DNA from: a virus
Lineage: Duplodnaviria > Heunggongvirae > Uroviricota > Caudoviricetes
Length of the DNA stretch: 40,006 nt
Strand: one strand, 5' to 3'
IMG/VR virus record: IMGVR_UViG_2568526473_000002
Coordinates: 1-40,006 of that record
Part shown: one piece after another, positions 15,972 to 16,998 of the stretch
How positions within the stretch are numbered: the first letter of the stretch is position 1
How the letters are laid out: each line of letters opens with the position of its first letter
Notes under the pieces: generated by a model
Database searches by the model: none
What the model was told of the DNA's origin: nothing
What the model saw: only the letters and a program-made list of their open reading frames with translations
Made by a program: the position numbers and the translations under genes

Positions 15972-16108
15972 TGTTTGAGTTTTATGTGGCAGAACGTCTT
16001 CGCCACCGCTGGATGCGCCTGCGCTTATATCGTTTCCCCGGTTCTGTTTTGACCGATTACCGAATACTGAGGAATTACGCCAAAACACTGAAAGGAGCTG
16101 CCGCATGA
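15968..16108 (+). CDS. ylcG: YlcG-like small protein (46 aa)
   Basis: [46 protein letters not shown]; overlaps the rusA stop and the next gene's start. Confidence 0.5.
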
Positions 16109-16794
16109 ATACCCAATATTTACAGTATGTCCGCGAGCAACTCATGGTGGCTACCGCTGACTTGAGCGGAGCAACGAAAGGCCAGCTTGAAGCCTGGCTG
16201 GAGCATGCACAATTTGATACTGGTACATACAAACGAAAGAAGCGACGCATTCTGGATGAGGTAACTGGCAAGATTATTATGCTGGATAATCAGCCGATTT
16301 CCGGTAAACAGTCGTACGCAAAAGGTTCATCTGTCGCCCTGATCAGTCCGGTTGAGTTTTCAACCTCTTCATGGCGCCGCGCTGTTCTGTCTCTCGATGA
16401 GCATCAGAAAGCATGGTTGCTGTGGAGTTACAGTGAAAATATTCGCTGGGAGCATCAGGTTGCCATAACGCAGTGGACATGGAGCGAGTTTAAGACTCTG
16501 TTGGGTACCAGAAAAATTGCAGGTAAGACACTGGAACGCCTGAAGAAGTTGATCTGGCTGGCGGCACAGGATGTGAAGAGCGAACTGGCAGGGCGTGAGG
16601 CTTATGAATACCAGGAACTGGCGTCACTGGTGGGAGTGACATCAAAAAACTGGTCTGAGACATTCACTGAACGCTGGGTTGCAATGAAGCACATTTTTCT
16701 ACAGCTTGATAGCGAAGCTTTATTGCTTCTAACGAGAACACGTTCAAAACAAAAGGCGACATTTTCACAGCAAAATATTGCAAAACTGGATTAA
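16105..16794 (+). CDS. Q-position protein, putative late-gene antiterminator (229 aa; not lambda-Q-like)
   Basis: Position immediately upstream of a late promoter/terminator region and the lysis cassette; AAAGGAG RBS; no confident family assignment. Confidence 0.5.
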   Translation: MNTQYLQYVREQLMVATADLSGATKGQLEAWLEHAQFDTGTYKRKKRRILDEVTGKIIMLDNQPISGKQSYAKGSSVALISPVEFSTSSWRRAVLSLDEHQKAWLLWSYSENIRWEHQVAITQWTWSEFKTLLGTRKIAGKTLERLKKLIWLAAQDVKSELAGREAYEYQELASLVGVTSKNWSETFTERWVAMKHIFLQLDSEALLLLTRTRSKQKATFSQQNIAKLD

Positions 16795-16824
16795 AAAGCA
16801 TATATTTCATATAAATCTGATATT

Positions 16825-16853
16825 TTGCCAATGTTGTACGCACTGGCAGTAAT
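16825..16853 (+). promoter_or_regulatory. Candidate late promoter PR' (-35 TTGCCA, 17-bp spacer, -10 AGTAAT)
   Basis: Hexamers and spacing read directly; lies between the Q-position gene and the terminator upstream of the lysis genes. Confidence 0.4.
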
Positions 16854-16975
16854 CCAAATTCAAGCTCGAGGTTTAAAGCCTTGGGCTTTTCTGTTTTTGG
16901 GCGGTGAGTATCCTTCCAACGTACCCCAGCCAGGGTGTCTTCAGCTGTTGAGTTGATATTGCTTAACCCTCTGTT

Positions 16976-16998
16976 GCCAGCTACATGCTGGCTTTTTT
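16976..16998 (+). terminator. Rho-independent terminator (tR'-like) upstream of lysis genes
   Basis: Stem gccagc/gctggc with 5-nt loop followed by TTTTTT; a weaker hairpin plus T-run also at 16875-16899. Confidence 0.7.

Follow-up and report, generated by a model that had tools for sequence, protein, structure and literature searches.

In a 40,006-nucleotide stretch of tailed-phage DNA (IMG/VR record IMGVR_UViG_2568526473_000002, positions 1 to 40,006; hereafter, the window), we analysed the gene of a putative late-gene antiterminator, Q, and the region that connects it to the lysis cassette. We observed the family to which this protein belongs, the sequence elements that follow its gene with their positions, and the conservation of these elements among relatives. 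We concluded that the region is very probably the late-gene switch of a phage 82-like lambdoid Escherichia coli prophage, composed of a Q82-family antiterminator and an 82-type PR′ promoter. A first-pass annotation of this DNA had proposed a late switch of the Q-qut-tR′ kind upstream of the lysis cassette, and this proposal is supported by a Q protein of family PF06323, a conserved PR′/pause layout and two terminators. Switches of this composition, a Q82 protein plus a late promoter, pause site and terminators, are already known.

The Q protein and its family

16105–16794, + strand: Q gene, encoding the Q82-family late-gene antiterminator of 229 amino acids (Pfam PF06323, PHROG 304, identity to phage 82 Q)

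The ATG start codon of the Q open reading frame (ORF) overlaps the stop codon of a 46-amino-acid YlcG-family ORF. A hidden Markov model search against the Q antiterminator families returned PF06323, the Q82 family named ‘Phage antitermination protein Q’, with an E-value of 7.4e-95 and 317.2 bits over 217 of the 220 profile positions (curated cut-off, 25 bits). PHROG 304, ‘anti-termination protein Q-like’, also matched (E 1e-106), and NCBIfam returned no model for the window Q at E≤0.01. Phage 82 Q (CAA63332.1) has the same length and aligns without gaps, with 212 of 229 residues identical (93%) and 222 of 229 positive, so that most of the 17 substitutions are conservative. Between the Q gene of the window and that in the phage 82 record X92588.1, DNA identity is 94.1%.

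Closer copies are also present in the databases. The copy of E. coli strain PSS-16, named ‘bacteriophage antitermination protein Q’ by the Prokaryotic Genome Annotation Pipeline (PGAP), has 99.6% DNA identity to the window Q gene, and a 99%-identical Q is encoded in ten independent IMG/VR contigs. DNA similar to the gene was found in 1369 of 5426 complete E. coli genomes (about a quarter). Among protein clusters built at 90% identity, 2770 matched the window Q, and PF06323 was present in all the 120 listed. The family takes up little sequence space: of 1.84 billion representatives, 178 clusters formed at 50% identity belong to it. At 25–30% identity, it extends beyond the classic lambdoid phages to N15 (gp40), PY54, phiKO2, VP882 and phiHAP-1.

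The first-pass annotation had found the 229-amino-acid protein to be unlike lambda Q and had suggested an alternative Q family. The former view was upheld. BLASTP of lambda Q against the window Q gave an E-value of 0.64 over 7 residues, and hhalign of lambda Q against a profile of 42 Q82-family sequences gave a probability of 0.7%. In Pfam at E≤10, the window Q matched PF06323 only, and neither PF03589 nor PF06530, whereas lambda Q matched PF03589 at 193 bits. The window Q has no cysteine and therefore no zinc finger of the lambda Q type. As for the alternative family, the protein is indeed distinct from lambda Q, but its family has been known for decades. Three Q families mutually without detectable sequence similarity are described, Q-lambda (PF03589), Q21 (PF06530) and Q82 (PF06323) (PMC9388147; PMC7171158). 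As Q82 is among them, the window Q represents an alternative but known family, and its sequence identifies it as an ordinary member of the long-known Q82 group, not as a new family.

The predicted late promoter PR′ and pause element

16778–16783, + strand: PR′ −35 hexamer TTGCAA, within the last Q codons (promoter scan)
16784–16800, + strand: PR′ spacer of 17 bp, which holds the Q stop codon (16792–16794); expected region of the Q-binding element
16801–16806, + strand: PR′ −10 hexamer TATATT (promoter scan and family survey)
16813, + strand: expected transcription start, +1 being the first A of AAA, 7 nucleotides past the −10 hexamer (the 82 pR′ transcript starts AAA)
16818–16826, + strand: predicted sigma70-dependent pause-inducing element, TG at 16818–16819 (+6,+7) and TATTTT at 16821–16826 (+9 to +14)
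16827–16829, + strand: GCC discriminator-like element, +15 to +17 (published 82 pR′ position)
16837–16838, + strand: predicted pause site, +25/+26 (T16837 is U25; G16836 is +24)

A consensus promoter scan returned a single site, TTGCAA-17-TATATT at 16778–16806. X92588 and the window share the final 60 nucleotides of Q exactly, a segment that takes in the −35 hexamer together with 11 of the 17 bases of the spacer. Phage 82 Q (82Q) requires a Q-binding element (QBE), the sigma70-dependent +25 pause and NusA, and its antitermination and antipausing activities are stimulated by NusA; the 82 QBE lies within −31 to +30, and Q-binding elements sit between the −35 and −10 hexamers (PMC4914094). The portion of this interval that falls inside the phage 82 record, −31 to −19, is unchanged in the window.

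We compared the sequence downstream of the −10 hexamer with what has been published on 82 pR′. The wild-type transcript starts AAA, an insertion at +9 shifts everything that the pause needs, +15 to +17 is GCC, and the pause occurs at +25/26 with U at +25 (PMC5001585). A one-base insertion at +18 brings G to the pause end, and therefore +24 is G (PMC5001585). The −10-like element of the 82 pause is nearer to TATAAT than that of lambda and is preceded by an extended −10, or TG-like, element (PMC5001585; PMC3326312). Read from A16813 as +1, the window sequence is AAATCTGATATTTTGCCAATGTTGTA, and it fits every one of these descriptors, in five features: AAA (16813–16815), the TG-extended −10-like element, GCC, G at +24 and U at +25. 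By analogy with phage 82, these agreements point to an 82-type PR′ with its start at about A16813, and to an 82-type pause layout at which pausing is predicted.

Conservation of this layout was surveyed in 139 loci: 80 close IMG/VR loci (88–99% Q identity), 56 loci from one-genome-per-species contigs (57–75%) and 3 GenBank/RefSeq records (phage 434, PhiR47_2 and E. coli PSS-16). The 56 distant loci span about 20 enterobacterial genera, including Kluyvera, Citrobacter, Leclercia, Enterobacter, Raoultella, Atlantibacter and Pantoea. The anchor pattern consisted of a −35-like hexamer, 16–18 nucleotides, a −10-like hexamer, 11–13 nucleotides and [T/A]G[A/G]TA[T/C]. This composite promoter and pause pattern could be anchored in 134 of the 139 loci, which gave 75 distinct sequences. 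TTGCAA was the −35 hexamer in 69 of the 75 and the spacer was 17 bp in 74; the −10 hexamer was exactly TATATT in 56, the remainder differing at one or two positions. The gap between the −10 hexamer and TG was exactly 11 in all 75. TG stood at +6,+7 in 71 of the 75, whereas TAY at +9 to +11 and T at +14 were found in every one, so that the pause element reads TGrTAYnnT or AGaTATnnT throughout. GCC at +15 to +17 (43/75) and T at +25 (67/75) were less constant. Information content is highest at +1 to +11, −12 to −7 and −35 to −28, and collapses past +26.

Leader homology with the window breaks off close to the pause site in several leader classes, at about +25 in class B (loci L016, L020 and L024) and a few bases past the start in phage 434. 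From the invariant PR′/pause layout and the variable leader downstream, we concluded that PR′ and the pause element travel with the Q gene as one module. A mosaic boundary lies near the pause site, from window position 16838 onward (loci L016, L020, L024 and L002).

Three observations weigh against an 82-type switch in the window. The promoter scan taken alone is at chance level (1 site versus 1.7 expected). X92588 stops at the Q stop codon, and hence the leader was matched to 82 pR′ through positions given in the literature and through conservation in the family rather than by a direct alignment. Finally, the window has A at −3 where the family majority has G (TTCATATAAATC versus TTCATGTAAATC), within the most conserved block; this A is common to the ten IMG/VR copies and the PSS-16 copy with near-identical Q.

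The substitution at −3 also bears on an alternative, in which the Q82-type elements are those of a prophage in decay whose Q or cis sites have lost their function. Defective prophages are common in E. coli, and the 17 amino-acid differences from phage 82 Q and the G-to-A change in a conserved block would be in line with decay. We consider this improbable. The Q ORF is of full length and its differences are mostly conservative (222/229 positives), the sizes and order of the ORFs in the window fit a complete prophage, and the near-identical Q recurs in ten IMG/VR contigs and in PSS-16, all sharing the A at −3.

On the minus strand, the sequence at 16770–16783, TTGCAATATTTTGC, fits the CII consensus TTGY-N6-TTGY and overlaps the PR′ −35 hexamer; the phage 434 record has a CII site and the paQ −35 annotated at the equivalent place. 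A CII-dependent antisense promoter at 16770–16783 was considered and rejected: the window holds 8 such patterns versus 9.7 expected, and the repeat is missing in at least two of the distant loci inspected.

The leader, its terminators and the neighbouring genes

16862–16898, + strand: terminator 1, a 12-bp stem-loop at 16862–16888 (+50 to +76) followed by the T-tract TTCTGTTTTT (16889–16898)
16976–16998, + strand: terminator 2, a 6-bp stem-loop GCCAGC-tacat-GCTGGC at 16976–16992 (+164 to +180) followed by TTTTTTATT (TTTTTT)
16825–16849, + strand: inverted repeat or RNA hairpin UUGCCA...UGGCAG, +13 to +37, with a predicted fold of −8.7 kcal/mol

Two hairpin and T-run terminators had been noted in the first-pass annotation. 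Both are real; the first is longer than described there, with its 12-bp stem at 16862–16888, and the second lies at 16976–16998. Their predicted folding energies are −15.4 kcal/mol (z-score −3.7) and −11.9 kcal/mol (z-score −4.1), respectively, and a weaker third hairpin is located at 17009–17030. In total, 6 terminator-like sites were found in 1.6 kb, compared to 1.5 ± 1.3 in shuffled sequences. Five stem variants of terminator 1 occur in relatives, each with 12 of 12 pairs retained, one of them through a two-sided change from G-C to A-T. Of 87 distinct related leaders, 71 have a terminator-like hairpin that ends by +120 (median position of the stem end, +76); the class of L016, L020 and L024 has none before about +182. 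The T-tract of terminator 1 is TTCTGTTTTT in the window versus TTCTGTTTCT in nearly all close relatives, and the longer uninterrupted T-run is that of the window.

Phages mEp237 and UPF_BP1 and other E. coli strains also carry the distal part of the Q–holin intergenic region (16945–17103), with terminator 2, next to similar holin genes but without a Q82-type gene. This distal part appears to be a component of the lysis module and not of the Q module.

Transcription start, pausing, Q binding, NusA dependence and readthrough in the window are described here on the model of phage 82. PR′ would fire constitutively, and sigma70 retained on RNA polymerase would bind the TG-extended −10-like element (+6 to +14), so that the polymerase halts at +25/+26. 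Q would bind its DNA site in the promoter region and load onto the paused complex with the help of NusA. The Q-modified polymerase, expected to resist both pausing and termination, would read past terminators 1 and 2 into the holin, endolysin and spanin genes and then the morphogenesis genes. Without Q, short RNAs of about 85 and about 186 nucleotides would be made.

The shorter of these RNAs, ending at 16898, might additionally act as a regulatory small RNA in the lysogen, as the PR′-derived StxS of Shiga toxin phages does. One report describes PR′ as constitutively active in lambdoid lysogens, with transcripts that end just downstream, and the by-product in Stx phages as a regulatory small RNA (PMC7547250). 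The predicted fold of the window leader RNA is also more stable than those of shuffled sequences (z-score −3.2). A search of 14000–20000 against Rfam at E≤1, however, gave no match, and beyond +26 the leaders divide into classes with unrelated sequences, as would not be expected of a conserved trans-acting RNA. Such a role, in addition to the Q switch, is therefore doubtful.

The variability of the leader is also relevant to the placement of the late promoter, which the first-pass annotation had put at TTGCCA-17-AGTAAT. These letters are present at 16825–16853, with the hexamers at +13 to +18 and +36 to +41 of the 82-type PR′ transcript, but the promoter scan rejects the site and both hexamers lie within the transcribed, variable leader. 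For a working late promoter at this position, with a start near 16860 just ahead of terminator 1, one can cite the 17-bp spacer between the hexamers and the agreement of TTGCCA with five of the six −35 consensus bases. AGTAAT, however, lacks the A expected as the second base of a −10 hexamer and therefore fails the consensus scan. A start near 16860 would leave no space for a pause element, as the terminator stem begins at 16862. AGTAAT occurs at +36 to +41 in 15 of 75 distinct related leaders, all from the window's own leader class, while other classes carry unrelated hexamers there and the upstream PR′ stays constant. Column information is 0.06–0.65 bits at +36 to +41 versus 1.3–2.0 bits at +1 to +11, and the published 82 pR′ descriptors fit the upstream start only. 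A promoter at 16825–16853 is thus close to refuted and we regard it as highly improbable. As judged from the sequence, the true late promoter lies ∼47 bp upstream, the promoter and pause/qut region together spanning 16778–16838, and the earlier observation of a late switch is only partly confirmed because its promoter was misplaced.

The region of these hexamers has another property. It forms the hairpin listed above, which covers all of TTGCCA and the first two bases of AGTAAT, and whose arms, at about +13 to +18 and +32 to +37, bracket the predicted pause site. Other leader classes have a stem at about the same place with other sequences (GUCG..CGAC, GCUGCC..GGCGGC, UGCCAA..UUGGCA and ACUUUGCC..GGUAAAGU), offset by 1–4 nucleotides between classes, and in the classes without a pause-site stem the terminator stem occupies that place. 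The hairpin is not required for Q82 action in vitro, because the −31 to +30 cassette of Wells et al. was without its 3′ arm (PMC4914094). In the literature examined, we found no description of a pause-site hairpin in Q82-type leaders. That a hairpin or inverted repeat around the sigma70-dependent pause site has a function in Q82-type late leaders seems unlikely. If it does, pause escape, sigma release, the loading of Q/NusA or the stability of the leader RNA might be affected.

The genes on either side of the switch are as follows.

17104 (TTG) or 17116 (ATG, PGAP start) to 17421, + strand: holin, the first late gene (PF16083, E 8e-22; PHROG 785)
17408–17884, + strand: endolysin (PHROG 90, E 9e-64)
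17868–18260, + strand: Rz-like spanin ORF (Rz-like spanin PHROGs 214 and 456, spanin pair)
18145–18414, + strand: second spanin ORF (Rz-like spanin PHROGs 214 and 456, spanin pair)

The gene order in the window is NinB-like, YbcO, RusA, YlcG, Q, holin, endolysin and spanins. The phage 82 record annotates a matching order, NinB-like orf151, ninE-like orf56, YbcO-like orf96, rus, YlcG-like orf45 and Q; ninE was assigned in the window by position only. By size and order, the ORFs of the window fit a complete lambdoid prophage (integrase, replication, lysis, terminase, portal, capsid and tail), family models having been run on the lysis genes and two cargo genes.

Two starts four codons apart are possible for the holin ORF, TTG at 17104 (MAIHM...), used in the PhiR47_2 record, and ATG at 17116, chosen by PGAP. 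The two starts could represent a dual-start holin/antiholin like lambda S. The spanin ORFs overlap, with neither embedded in the other, as the second, which has a lipobox-like motif LLTGC, extends beyond the stop codon of the first at 18260. This pair is unlike the Rz/RzpD gene annotated at the equivalent place in PhiR47_2 and E. coli PSS-16. The cargo genes (9622–14256), flanked by the replication genes and the nin region, encode an intimin/invasin-type inverse autotransporter of 1184 amino acids (PF11924, E 4e-101, plus Big_1 and Invasin_D3 repeats) and, on the opposite strand, an esterase of 347 amino acids (BD-FAE/Abhydrolase_3).

Comparison with known antitermination systems

Few cases of antitermination have been studied as thoroughly as the Q82 family with its sigma70-dependent pause at +25 and its requirement for NusA, and the gene is routinely annotated. 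What is gained here is a corrected map of the switch, with the promoter at 16778–16806, an expected start at 16813 and a predicted pause at 16837. The survey also yielded a family signature, TTGCAA-17-TATATT-11-TGrTAy with the −35 hexamer inside the last Q codons, by which the late promoter could be located in almost all of the Q82-type prophages surveyed.

An AlphaFold2 model of the window Q, computed from an alignment of 42 diverse family representatives, had a predicted local distance difference test (pLDDT) of 87.2 and a predicted template modelling score (pTM) of 0.76. Its top two fold matches in the PDB were AlpA in RNA polymerase loading and loaded complexes (7xya_G and 7xyb_G), both weak (E 0.25–0.35, probability 0.84–0.93, template modelling score 0.34–0.45); neither Q21 nor Q-lambda structures were among the 50 best matches. 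A resemblance to AlpA has been reported for an AlphaFold model of 82Q, with a ring-like part at the N-terminus and a helix-turn-helix at the C-terminus (Wen et al. 2022, PMC9371919). The weak AlpA matches of the window Q model agree with that comparison and add nothing new to it. A fold search of BFVD matched only a member of the Q82 family. Searches of the PDB by sequence and by two family profiles found no experimental Q82 structure, the Q82 profile matched no Q21 chain, and no Q82 structure paper was found in the literature searched. The wider question is whether Q82 forms a closed nozzle like Q21 and Q-lambda, and the window sequence does not advance its answer.

In logic and genomic position, the switch in the window is like the Q-PR′-qut-tR′ system of lambda: the antiterminator gene immediately precedes a late promoter expected to fire constitutively, and a predicted sigma70-dependent pause close to the promoter is followed by one or more terminators that would give a short leader RNA ahead of the lysis genes. 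In contrast, the two Q proteins have no sequence similarity and the window Q is without a zinc finger. The lambda pause is at +16/17 compared to +25 for the 82 type, whose pause element lies 9 bp further downstream (PMC5001585). Q21 (PF06530) and Pseudomonas aeruginosa AlpA have an analogous function and likewise load onto a complex paused near the promoter; neither has sequence similarity to the window Q.

Phage 434 (OL657226.1) is much closer. Its Q is 88% identical to the window Q, its PR′ (TTGCAA-17-TATACT) is at the same position, and it has the TG-extended −10-like element TGgTATGTT; however, its terminator directly follows the pause site, at about +29 to +48, and different genes come after it. 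Phage 82 itself differs from the window by the 17 substitutions in Q, and shares with it the preceding genes (rus and YlcG-like orf45), an identical −35 hexamer and proximal spacer, and the positions of the 82 pR′ elements.

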